From a virus: a stretch of 64,000 nucleotides of DNA. Position 1 is the first letter of the stretch. The number at the start of each line of letters is the position of its first letter. A model generated the notes under the pieces. It was not told the origin of the DNA. It saw only the letters and a list, made by a program, of their open reading frames with translations, and made no database searches. Position numbers and translations under genes: made by a program. Location of the stretch: UHGV virus genome UHGV-0149901; one strand, written 5' to 3'. Shown here piece after piece: positions 4,724-18,200 of the stretch.

Positions 4724-4935
4724 TCGTATTAAGTAAACGGGAGAAAGAAACGCTTCATGAAATAAGTAAGTGGCCGGAGTTCCCTGAGTACTGGAAGCCT
4801 AAAACGCGAGCTAAGTTAGAGCGTTTAGGGTTGGTTGCAAACGTTTCTGAAACGTGGTGCTCGGCCAACTACCAGTTAACTGATAAAGGGAAATTAATGC
4901 TACAGCAATTAGTAGAATCAGGAGCCTTTAAATGA
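4720..4935 (+). CDS. Hypothetical small protein
   Basis: 71 aa ORF, ATGA overlap with ligase stop. Confidence 0.5.
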   Translation: MIVLSKREKETLHEISKWPEFPEYWKPKTRAKLERLGLVANVSETWCSANYQLTDKGKLMLQQLVESGAFK

Positions 4936-5084
4936 TTCCATACATCTCATTGGCTTTTATGGCTGGCTTCCTTATCGGCTTCGGCATCTGTCGTGATTTG
5001 ATTAAGCAGGAACTTAAAACCAAAACACTGTGCATCGGAAAGCGTGTGTATCGGGTAGTTCATGAAACAAAGGTTAGAAAATGA
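4932..5084 (+). CDS. Small membrane protein (50 aa, not in ORF track)
   Basis: MIPYISLAFMAGFLIGFGIC...; ATGA overlaps with both neighbours; start coincides with recombinase half-site 13-mer. Confidence 0.4.
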   Translation: MIPYISLAFMAGFLIGFGICRDLIKQELKTKTLCIGKRVYRVVHETKVRK

Positions 5085-5371: not shown

Positions 5372-6147
5372 AAACACAATGATAAGTATTTACTTACTTA
5401 TCTTTTGTGTATAAGATGACTTTGTTTTCGTTGAGACGCGACTGTTTGAACTTAAATACAAGTGCAAACGAAGAAGTCTATCTGGCAGTAGCCTAATAAG
5501 CCAAACACCAGCGAGGTCAGTTTCCAGCCTCGTTACCGAAATGGGACACACTGAGCGAGTGTGATTGCAGAACGCAGGAGGGAACATTCATGTTCCCTCC
5601 GATGAAGTAACAGAATGGGCGGTTGGTATATTTTCAACTCCATATGACTCCCGGATTCTTAGCCACTGACCGCCCATCCTGTTACGTCATTTTGTTCAAT
5701 TATGTCGTTTATACTGGGTTAAAAAGCGGCGACGTAGCCCGGCTGGTATGGTTAGCCAGCACACAACGTTGAGGCCATTACATTTGTATCAATTCTAAGG
5801 TTCTATTCACAGAGATACCGGCGAGCGTTGATATGTAACATGTTGGGCAAACATTCAATCGGAGTAGTGGCCTCAACGTTGTGAAGACAGGATTGTTGTG
5901 TAGGTTTAACCACTGTTGCCATTGGTGCCTGTTTTCACAACAAATGATTCCATACATCACATTGTATAAATTAAAAAGTAGGTGCTGTCCTCAGAAACAT
6001 CATCTACTTAAAGATTTTGCCTTCTATTGAGCGAAGTCGAAAACGTCTGGCACTAACGGAAAGTGCAAGTAGCGGTGCGTTTCCTGGCAGAAACTAACAC
6101 CGCCGCGATTGGCACTGTTGAGTAATAAATACTGGCAGTGCTGAATT

Positions 6148-6222
6148 GATGGTGTAGCTCAGCGGTAGAGCAGTTGGCTGTTAACCAACTGGTCGGTGGT
6201 TCGAATCCACCCACCATCGCCA
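6148..6222 (+). tRNA. tRNA-Asn (GTT)
   Basis: Cloverleaf by hand: acceptor GATGGTG/CACCATC, anticodon loop CTGTTAA, T-loop TTCGAAT, CCA end. Confidence 0.8.
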
Positions 6223-6227
6223 ATTTA

Positions 6228-6314
6228 GGGGAGTTAGTCCGTAGGGGCAGCGGGGTAGACTGTAAATCTACTGTCATTGCGACTCGGGTGGTTCGACTCC
6301 ATCACTCCCCACCA
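6228..6314 (+). tRNA. tRNA-Tyr (GTA), long variable arm
   Basis: Acceptor GGGGAGT/ACTCCCC, anticodon loop CTGTAAA, T-loop TTCGACT, CCA end. Confidence 0.75.
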
Positions 6315-6318
6315 AATT

Positions 6319-6394
6319 GCCGGTTTAGCTCAGCTGGTAGAGCGCCTGCCTTGTAAGCAGGATGTCAGCGGTTCGAGTCCGCTAACCGGCACCA
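6319..6394 (+). tRNA. tRNA-Thr (TGT)
   Basis: Acceptor GCCGGTT/AACCGGC, anticodon loop CTTGTAA, T-loop TTCGAGT, CCA end. Confidence 0.8.
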
Positions 6395-6618
6395 ATACAA
6401 CGATAAGATCATTACGGTTAATCGTCGTTCATGTGCACAATGACTGGTCGAAAGGTAGTGATCTTACCGTTGTGGTGGATTCGCAGACTGATGCGATAGC
6501 TTTCTTGGATGTTAGGGAAATGCGGCCGCAAATCTTCCCTTTCGCGAGCGGTGATCGTCCGTAGTCCTAATTGGCTGCACCGTATGCCGGAGATTCAGTA
6601 CCGGCCACCACAACGGCC

Positions 6619-6705
6619 GGAGAGTAGGGAGCATGGTGCTCAAGCGGTCTTGAAAACCGTCCCATTGCGCAAGCGATGATGGTTCGATTCCATTACTCTC
6701 CGCCA
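6619..6705 (+). tRNA. tRNA-Ser (TGA), long variable arm
   Basis: Acceptor GGAGAGT/ACTCTCC, anticodon loop CTTGAAA, T-loop TTCGATT, CCA end. Confidence 0.7.
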
Positions 6706-6883: not shown

Positions 6884-7792
6884 TTAATGATTGCCTAGAT
6901 ATGATTTTAGTTCTTCTTTAATGATTAGTGAGTATTCTAAAATATCACTTAGTAAAAATTTTGCTCTGTTAAAATACCCACCAAAAGAACCTAAAATTTC
7001 AGATGGTCTTTCTAAGAGCATCACAATATCATCTTCTTGCACTTTAGTAATGTAACTTCTAACAGCTCTTTCTCCAATAACTCTTTTCTTACCGTTTATT
7101 TCAGATTCATCTAAAACCTTATTTATAAATTTTTCTGTATCATTGAATCGTCCACTATTGTGTACTATTGTATGTCTTAGTAGTTCAATTAGCTTGATGT
7201 TAAAGCGATAGTTTTTGCCAATCTTGTTGTTTGTTTCTATCTCTTTGAAGCCAGGTATTTTATTTCTGAAAATTTTAGTTATTTTTTTCGATGGGTTACT
7301 TTTTGCTTTTAATAATCTGTAATAAACTTCCCTTTTCCCAATTTCATCATCTTCAACCTTACCAAAATCACTTGAGGACCATAAATCATTTCGAACACAT
7401 ACAGTATAGACATATATTGCCTCAATATAGTCTTCCAGTAACTCATAGGCTTCAGTAATAACCCACTGATATTGTTTATTTTTCAAAGTATTACACAATC
7501 TTATCTTTTCTTCTAAATCAATGGCGCTGTTACCTATCTCTAATGTTGAACCTGTATATGGGTTTGAACATAAATGGCGAGCTAACGTTGTGCCACACTT
7601 AATCTTAATAGTTTCATTAATATTAATAATAGTATCTGGATTCTGTGCATACTCCACTTCTTTAAGAAGACGTTTTATATTTTTCTTTGTTGTATCATTT
7701 ATCTGATTTAAATAGTCAAAAAGTAAAGATATTTCTTCTCTAAATTCGTTGTATTTATTTTCAATCAAAGAATCAGACAACTTACCAATCAT
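6884..7792 (-). CDS. Hypothetical protein, AT-rich reverse-strand gene
   Basis: 302 aa ORF, markedly AT-rich relative to flanks, opposite strand to neighbours; contains R-x4-H (RHTIVH) HEPN-like motif (weak). Confidence 0.6.
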   Translation of the reverse strand: MIGKLSDSLIENKYNEFREEISLLFDYLNQINDTTKKNIKRLLKEVEYAQNPDTIININETIKIKCGTTLARHLCSNPYTGSTLEIGNSAIDLEEKIRLCNTLKNKQYQWVITEAYELLEDYIEAIYVYTVCVRNDLWSSSDFGKVEDDEIGKREVYYRLLKAKSNPSKKITKIFRNKIPGFKEIETNNKIGKNYRFNIKLIELLRHTIVHNSGRFNDTEKFINKVLDESEINGKKRVIGERAVRSYITKVQEDDIVMLLERPSEILGSFGGYFNRAKFLLSDILEYSLIIKEELKSYLGNH

Positions 7793-8211: not shown

Positions 8212-8306
8212 TACAATACGGCTCCTTTTGGGGCCATTTATTATTTGTAGCTTTCATCAGCACAGCGTACACTTAGTTACGAGCCATTGAGTAGTTAAGA
8301 GGTTTT

Positions 8307-8915
8307 ATGCGTTTAGAAAATTGCCTAGAAGATATGAGTGTCATTAGCAATGCCCTTGCTACTGTGACCTCTAACGCTTCACGCTTTTCAAACGCAAAGC
8401 CTACAGCTAAATCTGGGCGTGATTTTATTGAACCGCGTGGATATCGACGCTTCCGTGGCACGATGAAGCCCTCTGCGAAATTCACAGGATTCAAAACACA
8501 AACCTATGTGAGCACTGCGGCTATTCCTGTTCAAGAAAACCGCGATGCGGCACAGCTGGCAAAGATTGAAAGCAAGCTCGCAGAATTGACGGCGAAACAC
8601 GTTCGCTTAGCCCATGCCATCTCTGGATGGAAAGCGGAAAAGATTCGCAGCAACTTCGGTGAAAGTCGTTACGAAGAACTGAAGAACGTTGACCTGACCA
8701 TTCGTGGTTTGGAGGGATTCGTTAACAAGTTGATTCGCGACTCTGAGCAACCTCATCCATATTTGAAACGCTTGAGCGATTCTGTAACTGAGTATCGTTT
8801 AGCTATCTCTGATCTGCTATTGATTTTAAATCAGTGTTTTAACGACGTAGACGTCATCGAATCGCAGACTGGCCTCATTGATGAGGACGTCTTCGCCAAC
8901 TTCTCATTCCATTGA
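8307..8915 (+). CDS. Hypothetical protein upstream of toxin-like gene (possible antitoxin)
   Basis: 202 aa ORF with AAGAGG RBS, 9 bp upstream of YafO-like ORF. Confidence 0.5.
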   Translation: MRLENCLEDMSVISNALATVTSNASRFSNAKPTAKSGRDFIEPRGYRRFRGTMKPSAKFTGFKTQTYVSTAAIPVQENRDAAQLAKIESKLAELTAKHVRLAHAISGWKAEKIRSNFGESRYEELKNVDLTIRGLEGFVNKLIRDSEQPHPYLKRLSDSVTEYRLAISDLLLILNQCFNDVDVIESQTGLIDEDVFANFSFH

Positions 8916-8924
8916 GGTTGAACG

Positions 8925-9335
8925 ATGAAGATCACATGGAACAGTGATAGTTACGCCCAATTTTTAAAGCCGACCTTCGATATAAAGCCTGACTTAGAGA
9001 TTACGTTACTCAACGATTTCAAGTCGTTTAAACAAGGCATGTACCCAGCCATATTCGGCAAAGATGGCCCGTATACGGCTCCTGGTGCTATCGTGTCCTC
9101 CCGCGTCTATCACGTTCATCTCTTGTTCACGAAGCAAGAACGAACCAGCAGCCGCAGCAGATTCAATTGCACAAGCGACCGTGCACTCGTTTACAGTCAA
9201 CATGCACATTTCCAAGATGTGTATAGCCTATTGGCAATCTTCCCTAACAACGCACATCAGCACGCGAAAGATCCAAAAATTATGGTCGATATCGCTACCT
9301 ACGCGGCCGCATTTCAAGCTCTCACTAACCCTTAA
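8925..9335 (+). CDS. YafO-like toxin family protein (putative)
   Basis: Conserved blocks IFGKDGPY, RVYHVHL, LVYSQHA resemble YafO-family toxins as I recall them; 136 aa. Confidence 0.5.
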   Translation: MKITWNSDSYAQFLKPTFDIKPDLEITLLNDFKSFKQGMYPAIFGKDGPYTAPGAIVSSRVYHVHLLFTKQERTSSRSRFNCTSDRALVYSQHAHFQDVYSLLAIFPNNAHQHAKDPKIMVDIATYAAAFQALTNP

Positions 9336-9377
9336 CAATCATATTAATAACGCCTCAGAATTTAAATTCCTCCCTTA

Positions 9378-9410
9378 AATGATTCCATACCTACTATGTA
9401 TGGAATCATT
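9378..9410. other. lox/dif-like recombination core site (13 bp perfect inverted repeats, 7 bp spacer)
   Basis: AATGATTCCATAC-CTACTAT-GTATGGAATCATT, 99 bp upstream of recombinase gene. Confidence 0.65.
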
Positions 9411-9508
9411 GCTGAAAATGAGTTACTTTTACTCTTGATCCTATAAGAATCTATGCCTAATATACTGTTTACTTATACAGTGCATCGGCGTAACTCGGTG
9501 ATTGTCAT

Positions 9509-10612
9509 ATGAAAAATAGCTTTGACAGAGCACGCGCTGCGGAGAACACCTCAAAAGAGGCGATAGAGTATCTCGAAAGAGCATCTCAAATGCAGGCCGT
9601 TATGATCTCCCAGGTCAGCAATGACATGAGATTCTCGGACGCATTCATGTTATTCACTCGCTTATCTCTGCTGATAACCAGACGTCGGCCAGAGATCGCT
9701 GTTCATTGTATTTTGATACATGTTTTGCCGCACATTGCCGATGTAAAAGTAAGTGACATTAATAGGTTCATGGTGAACCAACTGGTCAACCCACTAATAC
9801 TGGATGGCAAAATTGTTATGGGCCGCCGCGTTTTCTCTCTGATGAAGCAGTTCCTTAGCTGGTGCGCCTTCCAGGGGATGATAGACGTGTCACCGTTAAA
9901 CGATATGTCACTTAACAAAGTTGCCGGTGGCGCAAAGCCCACACCTCGCGAGCGGAAGCTGACCGACGCAGAGGTATGGGTGTTCTGGAATATATGGGAC
10001 TACTTCAATGTGTGTGCTGGTACAAAATGGGCGGCCAGGCTATGTCTTGTATCCGCAAGACGACCTGACGAAGTACTGCGGGCTAAAAAAAGTGAGTTCA
10101 ATCTTAAGCGTGGGGTTTGGAATCAAGGCAAGAGGAACAAATCTGCCCGTGAGCATTCTCTGCCTTTAAGCTCATTAATGCGCACTTGTATTGAAGAGTT
10201 GTTCGAATATGGTAAAGACAGCCAGTGGCTCGTGCCTTCGAATAAAAAAATCGGGAAAGACCTTCCTATGTCTAAAGTGGCAATAGCCCAGGCATTACGT
10301 CGTATTCTGGAACGACCAGAACTGATGGAGCTTGAGCCATTTACACCCCGAGATTTGCGCCGTACTGCGCGTAGTTACTTCCCAGCATTAGGCATAAGCC
10401 AGGAGGTATCACGTAAAATCATGAACCACAGTCTTGAGGGGATAGATCGGGTCTACGACCGGCACGATTATATGGACGAGATGCGAGACGCCTTAGAAAG
10501 TTTCTCGACGTACATCGCATCAATCGTAGAGCAACCGGATTTAGACGAAATTGACCACAAATTTAAGGGAGATCGTCTATCAACAGAGCTTATTCGTGTA
10601 AATTTTTCATAG
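9509..10612 (+). CDS. Tyrosine site-specific recombinase / integrase
   Basis: C-terminal catalytic region with RDLRRT box, NHS, and terminal RVYDRHDY tyrosine; 367 aa. Confidence 0.8.
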   Translation: MKNSFDRARAAENTSKEAIEYLERASQMQAVMISQVSNDMRFSDAFMLFTRLSLLITRRRPEIAVHCILIHVLPHIADVKVSDINRFMVNQLVNPLILDGKIVMGRRVFSLMKQFLSWCAFQGMIDVSPLNDMSLNKVAGGAKPTPRERKLTDAEVWVFWNIWDYFNVCAGTKWAARLCLVSARRPDEVLRAKKSEFNLKRGVWNQGKRNKSAREHSLPLSSLMRTCIEELFEYGKDSQWLVPSNKKIGKDLPMSKVAIAQALRRILERPELMELEPFTPRDLRRTARSYFPALGISQEVSRKIMNHSLEGIDRVYDRHDYMDEMRDALESFSTYIASIVEQPDLDEIDHKFKGDRLSTELIRVNFS

Positions 10613-15201: not shown

Positions 15202-18200
15202 CTTCTCACTTGGGGAGTCGGCTCTAAAAGCAGAAAACGCGGTGAAGATTGCCAGAGAAGCTGGCTACACCGCTGTAATTTCAGCAGATAGCATGAATAT
15301 TGCGAGCGTTATTCCACTACAACGTGCCGCTGGTGACGACATGGCGGTTATTTGTGGTGTGAAACTAAACATTGTTGATGATCCCACATACGAGCACCGG
15401 GCTAAACTTGCTAAAGAATCTATGAGATGTATGGAATCATTAGAGCGGGGACGTAACTACTCGTTTACCGCTCTAATTAAAAATGAGCAAGGATATCGCG
15501 ACATCTGCGAACTAATGACGGCGGCCAACACACGAGAACAGTTCTACTTTGTACCGCGTCTCTCGCTCGAACAGTTGGTTTCTACATATGCCAAAGGCAA
15601 CATCATCCTGCTTACTTCCGACATCGGTAGCGTGTTCCAACGCAACGATTTTGCAAAAATCATAAGCACACTGATTACAGCGGGTGGAAAAGACAACTTC
15701 TATAGTGTGGTTTATCCGCACCCTACCCCATTCTACGACCAGATTAACGTCCGGGCGATGAAAGTCGCCAGCGCATTGAAAATAGAGCCAGTGGCGTTCT
15801 ATCCCGCTTATTACGAATCGATCGACGATGCAGACATTAAAGACATTGCGCACATGGTTACGAACAACATCAAAATCGACCAGCCGCATCGTCTGCGTAT
15901 CCCCCACCAGCGAGATAACGCCGTCAATGGTCGCCGCCATCTCCTTGAGGCGCTTAAAGCCTTCTCCGTTCGCATGGATGTGCCGGTAACAGCTGCAATG
16001 GCCTCAACAACGCAGGATACCATTATCGATGCCTGCACATGGCGCTGGCATGAATTGCCGCCAGCACTGCCAAAGATGGCAGACGACGAGCCTGCAACGC
16101 TTATGAAACTGGCTGTTGCAGGGCTGCGTAAACGTCTTACCACAAAAGAGTTTGGCTACACACCACCTGCTTCTGAGAACAGGGTTTATGTTGAGCGGCT
16201 AAAGTACGAAATGGACACGCTGACTCGCCTGGGATTTTGTGGTTACTTCCTGATGGTACGCGATCTGATGAATCATAGTCGTGAAACTGGCATTCCCGTT
16301 GGGCCTGGTCGTGGTTCCTCTGCCGGTTCTCTGGTGGCGTGGTGCATAGGCATAACCAACGTCGACCCAATCCGTCACGGTCTTCTGTTTGAGCGTTTCA
16401 TCAACCCTGAGCGTCTCGACTTGCCGGATGCGGACTTGGACTTCAGCCAGGCACGTCGCCATGAGGTGATCGAGTATCTGAATGAACGCTACGGCGAAGA
16501 TTACGTTGCGGGTATTCCGAACTTCACCTACCTGGGCGCAGCCTCTGCACTACGTGATACCGCTCGTATTTATGGTGTGGAGTCCGCAGATATGGCGGTA
16601 TCAAAAGAACTGAAGAACGTCGAGGATGATAGCCTTCCATTGGAAGAGCTGCGCGAACAACTGGCAAGTCTCGACAAATACGCAACAAAATATCCTGATG
16701 CATTCAATGCAGCCTGCAAGTTACAAAGCCTTATGCGTGGCTTTGGTAGACATGCGGCAGGGATGATCGTAGCAGGTGTTCCTCTGACAGAACGTACACC
16801 GGTTGAGCGCCGTGGTGACGCGCGTTGTATCGCATTTGACAAGCGTTACTGCGAGGCTATGGGCCTAATTAAGCTGGACGTGCTTGGCCTGGCAACTCTC
16901 GATTTGCTCGATAGTGCAAAACGCTACATAAAAGAGAACACAGGTGAAGATATCAATCTTGATGCCATTTCTCTTGAAGATCGCAAGGTGCTGGATGGTT
17001 TTGCTGCTGGGTACACTCAAGGTGTTTTCCAGCTTGAATCAGGCCCAATGCGCAAGCTGCTTAAAGATTTAGGTGGTGGAATTGAGCCAATGAGCTTTAA
17101 AACGGTCGTCGCTACAACTGCGCTCTTCCGGCCGGGGCCAATTCAATCAGGCATGTTGGATGACTATGTTTCTGTCGCCAAAGGCTTTATGACGCCGGAA
17201 TCATTACACCCCGTTCTTGATGAACTTACCGCGGAAACAAATGGCGTGATTCTCTATCAGGAACAGACGATGAACGCGACTCGATTGCTTGCCGGCTTCA
17301 CAATGGCTGAAGCTGACGCTGTGCGTTCCGCAATCGGTAAGAAGAACATGGAAAAAATGAAGAGCATGGGCGAGAAGTTCATCGTTCAGGCTCAAGCTGG
17401 CTGGATAGACGTTGAGCTGGAAGATGGCACTACACAGCGCATTCACCGTGCGGAACATTTTAAATGCGAAGACGGAACTCTGAAAACTGTCGAAGAGGCA
17501 CTTGAGCACGGCGCAAAACTACCTATAAACGCAGTACGCGTTACAGCGTCACATCCAGGGCTATCAGAGATGAAAGCGAAGGAGATCTGGACCGCATTTG
17601 AGAAAAACGGAGCCTATCAGTTCAATAAATCACACTCCGTTGCTTATTCTTTAATCAGTTATCAATCTATGTGGTTGAAAACTCATTATCCCGCAGAGTT
17701 TTTCGCTGCTGCTCTCACTATTCTTGGCGAAGATAAACACCAAGGGCTGGTTAAAGATGCGCTGACCTATGGTATTCGCGTATTGCCACCAGACGTTAAC
17801 GTGTCATCTAACCGAATCGAGATCCGCACGCTTGAAGATGGCAGCCAGGTTCTGTATGCGCCCTTCTCTGCTGTGAAGGGGTGTTCTGAGAATGGCTGCC
17901 AAGCCATCATGAGAGCACGAGAAAAAGTTGGCGGCAAATTCGAGTCACTGGCGCAATTCGAAGAAGCTGTCGAGAAACGTGCCTGTAATAGTCGAGTGCG
18001 CGAATCACTGCAAAAAGTAGGTGCGTTTGCATCCATCGAGCCAGGTAGTCTGCCAGCAACTGATCCTGAGCGTCTCCGCGACCAGGCAGAATTGATGGGA
18101 AACCTTGTCATAGACGCAGTTAAAGCCTCACGTCCGTTTGAGATGAACCCCAAACGATCGGCTGAAATTAACGCACTCATGACACGGATGGCGGCTGAAA

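Follow-up and report, generated by a model that had tools for sequence, protein, structure and literature searches.

A candidate type II toxin-antitoxin operon with an undescribed partner of a YafO-family toxin on an SSU5-like phage-plasmid

Two adjacent genes of the phage-plasmid described here probably make up a toxin-antitoxin operon of type II. The toxin, encoded by the second gene, is of the YafO family and had been known and annotated before. The novelty lies in the 202-aa product of the first gene, a protein of unusual architecture that has not been described before and that probably represents a family of cognate antitoxins. This partner would neutralise the YafO-type RNase by direct binding, with its acidic tail as the likeliest contact, and the module would stabilise the phage-plasmid or aid it in competition. 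A probability of about 0.65 is given to this reading. The original prediction, that the genes are a toxin-antitoxin pair with a novel antitoxin, is supported at the level of sequence by their co-occurrence, by the correlation of their distances (Mantel r 0.88), by the overlap at their junction and by the lack of a rival antitoxin candidate.

The element and the gene pair

The window (the whole 64,000-nucleotide stretch of viral DNA that was analysed) can be recognised as an SSU5-like E. coli phage-plasmid from its plasmid and phage matches, a tRNA cluster and a CobT-like/VWA gene found by Pfam search. The 3.3-kb stretch around the pair shows 99.7% identity to non-mobilizable IncFIB plasmids of E. 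coli of about 110-120 kb, such as pRM9975-1, and 98.5% identity to "Escherichia phage CMS-2020a" and "phage Cyrano". Some portion of this stretch is matched by 765 plasmid records.

Four tRNA genes (Asn-GTT, Tyr-GTA, Thr-TGT and Ser-TGA) are clustered at 6148-6705. The equivalent place in phage Cyrano holds only Asn, Thr and Ser tRNAs, so the tRNA set differs between close relatives.

The pair was originally predicted as two ORFs of 202 and 136 aa ahead of a repeat site and a recombinase. The ORF boundaries agree exactly with the ORF listing, and both the repeat and a tyrosine recombinase gene are found downstream. Because both ORFs of the pair are under purifying selection, neither can be regarded as a chance ORF. 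The features of the region are as follows.

8220-8235, plus strand: terminator-like hairpin after grxA (GGCTCC-TTTT-GGGGCC and a T-rich run), which sets the pair apart from the upstream gene
8245-8273, plus strand: tentative promoter from alignment, TTGTAG (8245-8250), 17 nt, TACACT (8268-8273)
8297-8302, plus strand: Shine-Dalgarno site AAGAGG of the partner gene, 4 nt ahead of the ATG
8307-8915, plus strand: partner gene (putative antitoxin), 202 aa, ATG start, from the ORF listing
8307-8396, plus strand: N-terminal helix of the partner (aa 1-30)
8397-8540, plus strand: variable, basic, disordered insert of the partner (aa 31-78)
8541-8846, plus strand: helical bundle of the partner (aa 79-180)
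8847-8912, plus strand: conserved acidic tail of the partner (aa 181-202), containing ESQTGLIDEDVFANFSFH
8914-8917, plus strand: ribosome-binding site GAGG of the toxin gene, overlapping the TGA stop of the partner (8913-8915)
8925-9335, plus strand: YafO-family toxin gene, 136 aa, ATG start, from the ORF listing and PF13957
About 9378-9410, no strand assigned: inverted repeat ATGATTCCATAC-N7-GTATGGAATCAT, right-hand border of a variable slot
9509-10612, plus strand: tyrosine recombinase (PF00589), given for context only and outside the module

The toxin

The 136-aa protein had been assigned to the YafO type from short conserved blocks, and a profile search, which might have returned no HMM match, had been proposed as a check. 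The search gives a strong match to the Pfam family YafO_toxin (PF13957), with an E-value of 2.8e-22 and 79.1 bits against a gathering cut-off of 25. Residues 34-131 align with profile positions 2-100 of 101, so that the resemblance extends from short blocks to a near-complete domain.

The protein is 36% identical to YafO of E. coli K-12 over 110 residues. It scores 58.8 bits against the NCBIfam YafO equivalog NF007377, for which the cut-off is 153. Because this score is well under the cut-off, the comparison identifies the toxin as a member of the YafO family and not as an orthologue of K-12 YafO. Five residues of the toxin (K36, H63, H65, T83 and Y90) are invariant in all YafO subfamilies compared, K-12 YafO included.

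YafN-YafO has been shown experimentally to be a toxin-antitoxin pair, in which YafO cuts only mRNA that is being translated (PMC2814082). YafO is also one of the 13 BECR-fold toxin families in a Pfam-based classification (PMC11980606). No solved structure was found for any YafO relative. The best structural matches to a model of the window's toxin are chains of HigB, YafQ, YoeB and RelE. By analogy with E. coli YafO, the toxin would be a growth-arresting endoribonuclease with a RelE-like fold. It is a basic protein with a pI of 9.0. Its best match among the defence profiles of PADLOC-DB 2.0 has an E-value of 0.044 and is not significant.

In near-identical plasmids, RefSeq labels the gene "type II toxin-antitoxin system YafO family toxin" and calls the product of the gene upstream of it a "hypothetical protein".

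The partner protein

The upstream protein had been predicted to be unlike the small antitoxins of the YafN/Phd type, and this proves to be the case. BLASTP gives no alignment between it and K-12 YafN at E <= 100, and the protein falls into no described family: there is no match in Pfam, NCBIfam or PADLOC, and hence no antitoxin family among its Pfam matches. A profile search found no relative in the PDB. Its sole PHROG, phrog_13546, is one of those with no known function.

The family is also small. Among 5.8 billion sequences it forms 27 clusters at 90% identity, the full-length ones being at least 58% identical, and a profile search run exhaustively against 1.84 billion cluster representatives gave 11. 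Among 185,579 species-representative genomes it was detected in only five, all from Enterobacterales. No paper describing it was found in the literature. By these comparisons the partner is an undescribed protein family.

Evidence that the partner is a real gene is provided by its pattern of substitution, measured against the Klebsiella homologue. The dN/dS ratio is 0.18 overall, with 0.08 for residues 1-30, 0.10 for residues 79-180 and 0.04 for residues 181-202. Residues 31-78 evolve almost freely, with a pN of 0.52.

The AlphaFold2 (AF2) model has a mean pLDDT of 64 and about 80 in its core. Helices are modelled at residues 3-23, 76-106, 110-145 and 151-178, and confidence is low for the segments 25-76 and 181-202. 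The two low-confidence segments are of different kinds. The first varies in length and sequence and is almost missing from the Pluralibacter homologue; residues 31-78 are basic, with a net charge of +7. The second is acidic, with a net charge of -5, and its 22 residues, which end the protein with ESQTGLIDEDVFANFSFH, are kept down to the most distant member of the family. According to the model, the tail would have no fold in the isolated protein. A segment that is conserved and yet not expected to fold by itself is what a toxin-binding tail would look like.

Fold searches with the model returned only generic helical bundles. Both the size of 202 aa and the helical-bundle architecture are unusual for the antitoxin of a RelE-type toxin.

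No HTH, RHH, AbrB or Phd domain was detected in the partner with Pfam and NCBIfam. Because it has no recognisable DNA-binding domain, the autoregulation that is typical of type II systems is unsupported here. Some accepted type II antitoxins also lack a DNA-binding domain, so its absence is compatible with membership of the class.

Several other readings of the partner gene were considered and rejected. The C-terminal half alone, made from an internal start, could be taken for the true antitoxin, but the N-terminal 30 residues are among the best conserved of the protein, and the conserved Shine-Dalgarno site and start also contradict an internal start. A seemingly truncated partner in one locus (L014) reflects only a different gene call, and its ORF is intact. 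The copy in K. variicola p_AC125 (L025) is degraded, with frameshifts along its whole length, and was left out as poor sequence.

Linkage of the two genes

The partner and the toxin are found together in every setting that was examined. Every partner homologue with readable surroundings is followed by a YafO_toxin gene on the same strand, 5-12 nt downstream. This holds for all five loci of the genome scan, including an Acerihabitans locus in which both genes are truncated together, and for all 26 loci in IMG/VR, where both are full-length. The exhaustive profile search, the genome scan and IMG/VR gave no partner homologue without an adjacent YafO gene. In PLSDB, the partner occurs in 317 records and a toxin at least 60% identical to that of the window in 313.

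The pair is not confined to phage-plasmids, since it also occurs in five chromosomal settings and on metagenome contigs. It is present in an Erwinia chromosome amid metabolic genes, in chromosomes of Brenneria, Enterobacter roggenkampii and Pluralibacter, and in metagenome contigs, one of which carries the most distant relative of the partner (P0075). Pairwise distances between partners follow those between toxins, with a Mantel r of 0.88 that was reached by none of 5000 permutations. The distribution indicates that the two genes are inherited and moved as a unit across unrelated contexts. Taken together, the comparative genomics is consistent with a cognate toxin-antitoxin pair.

Upstream of two chromosomal copies there is a remnant resembling the 3' end of grxA, together with a terminator (L011 3263-3380 in Enterobacter roggenkampii and L015 3347-3464 in Pluralibacter gergoviae). 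To judge by this remnant, the Enterobacter and Pluralibacter modules were probably captured from a phage-plasmid along with a piece of the neighbouring gene.

One plasmid of E. coli, CP059990.1 (L028), carries a broken partner. Two indels, equivalent to window 8672-8714, interrupt the protein by introducing stop codons beyond residue 121, and the toxin is intact except for H112Y. The same record has a 1-nt deletion, and thus a frameshift, in the neighbouring repressor gene at the equivalent of window 10635. The broken partner counts against the antitoxin hypothesis, but it may result from assembly errors or from real decay of the element.

Signals for expression and other candidate antitoxins

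The two genes of the window are co-directional and separated by 9 nt. At their junction the stop codon of the partner overlaps the ribosome-binding site of the toxin gene in the form T(G/A)AGG, the site being GAGG or AAGG, in seven of the eight homologous loci compared. This overlap suggests that translation of the two genes is coupled.

The scanner reported no consensus promoter between the grxA hairpin and the start of the partner. The tentative promoter listed above has 7 of the 12 consensus positions, which is under the threshold of the scanner. The grounds for proposing it are that this block is kept ahead of the pair in four contexts, those of E. coli, Klebsiella, Erwinia and Enterobacter. 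A search of the promoter region of the pair revealed no palindromic operator.

An antitoxin other than the partner was also sought near the pair. Between 7800 and 9700 there is no Rfam family and there are no tandem repeats that would indicate an RNA antitoxin of type I or III. The alternative was dismissed, since the surroundings of the pair offer no plausible small ORF in addition to lacking an Rfam match or tandem repeat.

The variable slot downstream of grxA

The interval between grxA and the recombinase (window 8212-9508) was compared with that of eight other loci (L002, L003, L022, L026, L027, L028, L062 and L063). The comparison shows that the contents of the interval are swapped between SSU5-like phage-plasmids, which makes it a variable slot. 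Phage Cyrano has an unrelated 184-aa gene there, on the opposite strand, in place of the pair. Other elements from Klebsiella, E. coli, Enterobacter and Salmonella carry a different partner and YafO pair in the slot, and Klebsiella elements have extra slot genes of 118 and 286 aa. Replacement of the module by other cassettes in related phage-plasmids is as expected for an accessory module.

The inverted repeat that forms the right-hand border of the slot is identical in all eight SSU5-like loci examined. Since it does not change with the cassette upstream of it, it is probably associated with the recombinase and not with the pair, and it marks the edge of the slot. The original prediction had taken the neighbourhood of the recombinase for a typical place of addiction modules. 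By itself this location does not point to addiction: the pair occupies a swappable slot, the repeat goes with the recombinase, and proximity to the recombinase is a property of the slot.

At 9379-9409, ahead of the recombinase gene, the 12-mer ATGATTCCATAC and its inverted copy make up a perfect repeat around a spacer of 7 nt. Further exact copies occur at 4932-4943 and 5944-5955 on the plus strand and at 15429-15440 on the minus strand, each extended to approximately AATGATTCCATACATC(T/A)CA. The number of exact copies expected by chance is estimated at about 0.008 (2 x 64,000 / 4^12). The repeat could be a site of the recombinase, or an operator or other regulatory site.

What looks like a second variable region lies just upstream of grxA. 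On the minus strand of the window, positions 6884-7792 contain a 302-aa ORF for which Pfam, NCBIfam and PADLOC gave no match. The corresponding position in L028 is taken instead by the 184-aa gene that occupies the yafO slot in phage Cyrano. Two Klebsiella plasmids (L025 and L030) have an AbiH-family abortive-infection gene near the grxA-yafO region, upstream of grxA. Such genes suggest that the neighbourhood gathers defence or accessory functions.

Other YafO pairs on plasmids

Three kinds of long partner that match no Pfam family are found ahead of YafO toxins on plasmids. The partner of the window belongs to type 1, which occurs in 317 plasmid records. Type 2 occurs in 257 and type 3 in 43, the latter from Klebsiella, so that long YafO partners are present in at least 617 plasmid records over the three types. 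A canonical YafN, at least 90% identical, is found in 13 plasmid records and a K-12-like YafO in 12; of the K-12-like YafO records, at least one carries an E. coli K-12 label and another has a length of 4.9 Mb.

Pairs of type 2 (for example in pvB_Kpn_135LU_ST147 and pASM1) and type 3 (for example in p1254-1) resemble that of the window in their arrangement. They likewise contain a YafO_toxin gene, with E-values of 1e-21 to 1e-24, and it is preceded by a partner of about 175-180 aa (174-175 aa in type 2) without a Pfam family. The type 2 pair often occupies the same slot between grxA and the integrase of SSU5-like elements. The pairs differ in sequence and in spacing. Toxins of types 2 and 3 are only about 28-33% identical to that of the window (about 28% for type 2), and the type 2 genes overlap by 10 nt where the window's pair has a gap of 9 nt.

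Profile comparison gives weak and tentative links between the partner types, all of them by way of type 3. With hhalign, types 1 and 3 are matched with a probability of 63% (E 7e-5) over 101 columns and have an RGLEG motif in common, and types 2 and 3 with a probability of 51% (E 1.5e-4). The match between types 1 and 2 is not significant, even with an enlarged alignment of type 2. Its best alignment nevertheless falls at the equivalent position and includes the last helix and a (D/E)V-x-ES motif.

In type 1 partners the N-terminal segment, which is acidic and amphipathic, forms a helix of the bundle in the model. Partners of types 2 and 3 have an N-terminal hydrophobic segment that is slightly signal-peptide-like.

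The toxins behind long partners of all three types share an N-terminal extension with invariant residues W5, N6, Y10 and F18. This extension of about 16-20 residues (toxin residues 1-17, window 8925-8975) is absent from K-12 YafO, whose partner is YafN. It might be a piece of a partner-specific interface.

It is conceivable, if rather unlikely, that the long partners of types 1-3 make up one fast-evolving antitoxin superfamily specific to YafO and double as specificity determinants, the alleles of the slot acting like immunity genes and the bundle serving as a sensor. If so, these immunity-like alleles would decide which element survives in a cell, whether the contest is between related incompatible phage-plasmids or with an incoming phage.

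Comparison with known toxin-antitoxin systems

The nearest described system is YafN-YafO of E. coli K-12, which is part of the dinB-yafN-yafO-yafP operon. Its toxin is of the same Pfam family, and the antitoxin gene comes first, as it does here. YafN also has an acidic, Phe-containing C-terminus (...DDDFNDFKE) like that of the window's partner (...DEDVFANFSFH), a resemblance that serves only as a lead. In other respects the systems differ. YafN is a 97-aa protein of the Phd/YefM type, whereas the partner has 202 residues, is helical and contains a disordered insert. The K-12 genes belong to the SOS-regulated dinB operon, whereas the pair described here lies on a phage-plasmid.

HigBA, RelBE, YefM-YoeB and DinJ-YafQ, systems of the RelE/ParE superfamily with a BECR fold, have the toxins that are structurally nearest to the model of the window's toxin. 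Antitoxins in this superfamily come from known families (RelB, Phd/YefM, HigA of the Xre-type HTH class, and DinJ), and the partner belongs to none of them.

All-helical antitoxins are known elsewhere. Epsilon of the epsilon/zeta system and the C-terminal domain of PezA are all-helical bundles that neutralise their toxins directly and have no classical DNA-binding fold. As a helical antitoxin candidate, the partner resembles both.

Proposed mechanism and alternatives

In the proposed operon, the toxin would cleave mRNA under translation and thereby arrest growth, as E. coli YafO does. The 202-aa protein would be its cognate antitoxin: the acidic, Phe-rich tail (aa 181-202) would dock on the basic toxin and block it, and the helical bundle would serve as a scaffold or oligomerisation domain. 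Translational coupling may help to prevent synthesis of the toxin without its partner. Biologically, the module would probably serve in post-segregational killing, or in competition by which the phage-plasmid is retained in its host lineage. The properties that we infer for it are toxicity, direct binding, a contribution of the tail, lability of the antitoxin and a stabilisation phenotype. Direct neutralisation is favoured because an acidic tail faces a basic toxin, because the antitoxin gene comes first and the start of the second gene is coupled to it, and because the two genes are strictly inherited one to one.

These same three features weigh against the idea, to which a low probability is given, that the partner acts indirectly on the ribosome or on mRNA, or that a YafO-like protein, harmless by itself, has it as a co-factor or regulator. 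The lack of likeness to known antitoxins would fit such a role, and the basic disordered insert could bind nucleic acid; the insert is, however, the least conserved part of the protein and nearly absent in the Pluralibacter homologue. A harmless toxin would also fit the natural variant CP059990.1, with its disrupted partner and apparently intact toxin, but the toxin of the window retains the invariant YafO residues that it shares with the experimentally toxic K-12 protein. It is very improbable that the association is incidental and the 202-aa ORF an unrelated phage-plasmid gene that happens to precede an orphan YafO toxin. A paper on Klebsiella plasmids does list a YafO-family toxin outside any complete toxin-antitoxin system (PMC8151138), and the partner is annotated merely as a hypothetical protein. 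Against this, the two genes share at least six unrelated genomic contexts outside phage-plasmids, with 5-12 nt between them in every case, and no partner homologue was found without a YafO gene.

A further alternative also has a toxin and an antitoxin, but with another biological role and with the bundle as the sensing part. Here the partner would hold the toxin inactive and act as a sensor for abortive infection or superinfection exclusion, and a protein from an invading phage or a competing phage-plasmid would displace or destroy it and so free the RNase. Compatible with the data and given a fairly low probability, this alternative draws on the position of the pair in a variable slot of a temperate phage-plasmid, on divergent partner and YafO "alleles" in the same slot of related elements, on AbiH close by in relatives, and on a partner far larger than neutralisation alone requires. 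SSU5-group elements also carry various abortive-infection defence systems, according to passages of a recent survey (bioRxiv 10.1101/2025.09.12.675607). On the other hand, neither protein has a significant PADLOC match, the module is also found alone in chromosomes amid metabolic genes, and nothing in the sequence separates sensing from simple neutralisation.

Significance

YafO is a classic toxin family of E. coli, and the antitoxin described for it is YafN, a small protein of the Phd type. In the survey of Leplae et al. (2011), YafO was associated with Phd-type partners and with unclassified partners assigned by "guilt by association", and was not encountered on plasmids or phages (PMC3141249). 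In a survey of E. coli, the partners of YafO toxins fell into 13 clusters, 8% of them known, and such bulk surveys count long YafO partners among the "unknown partners" (PMC10790755). The passages on toxins, antitoxins and defence in the large survey of SSU5-group phage-plasmids (bioRxiv 10.1101/2025.09.12.675607) do not mention the pair. Because the partners are annotated as hypothetical, the toxins have been read as orphans or incomplete systems in papers on clinical plasmids (PMC8151138).

The partner described here belongs to a broader pattern among the YafO toxins of plasmids that has gone unrecognised. In present-day Enterobacterales plasmids the classic picture is reversed: YafO is almost always found behind a family-less protein of 175-205 aa (317 + 257 + 43 records), and YafN-YafO in about 13 records.

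If the partner is an antitoxin, RelE-type toxins would gain an antitoxin of new architecture. Annotations would be corrected in hundreds of phage-plasmids from Klebsiella, E. coli and Enterobacter, including some with resistance genes, and the module would offer a testable handle on the maintenance and competition of SSU5-like phage-plasmids.
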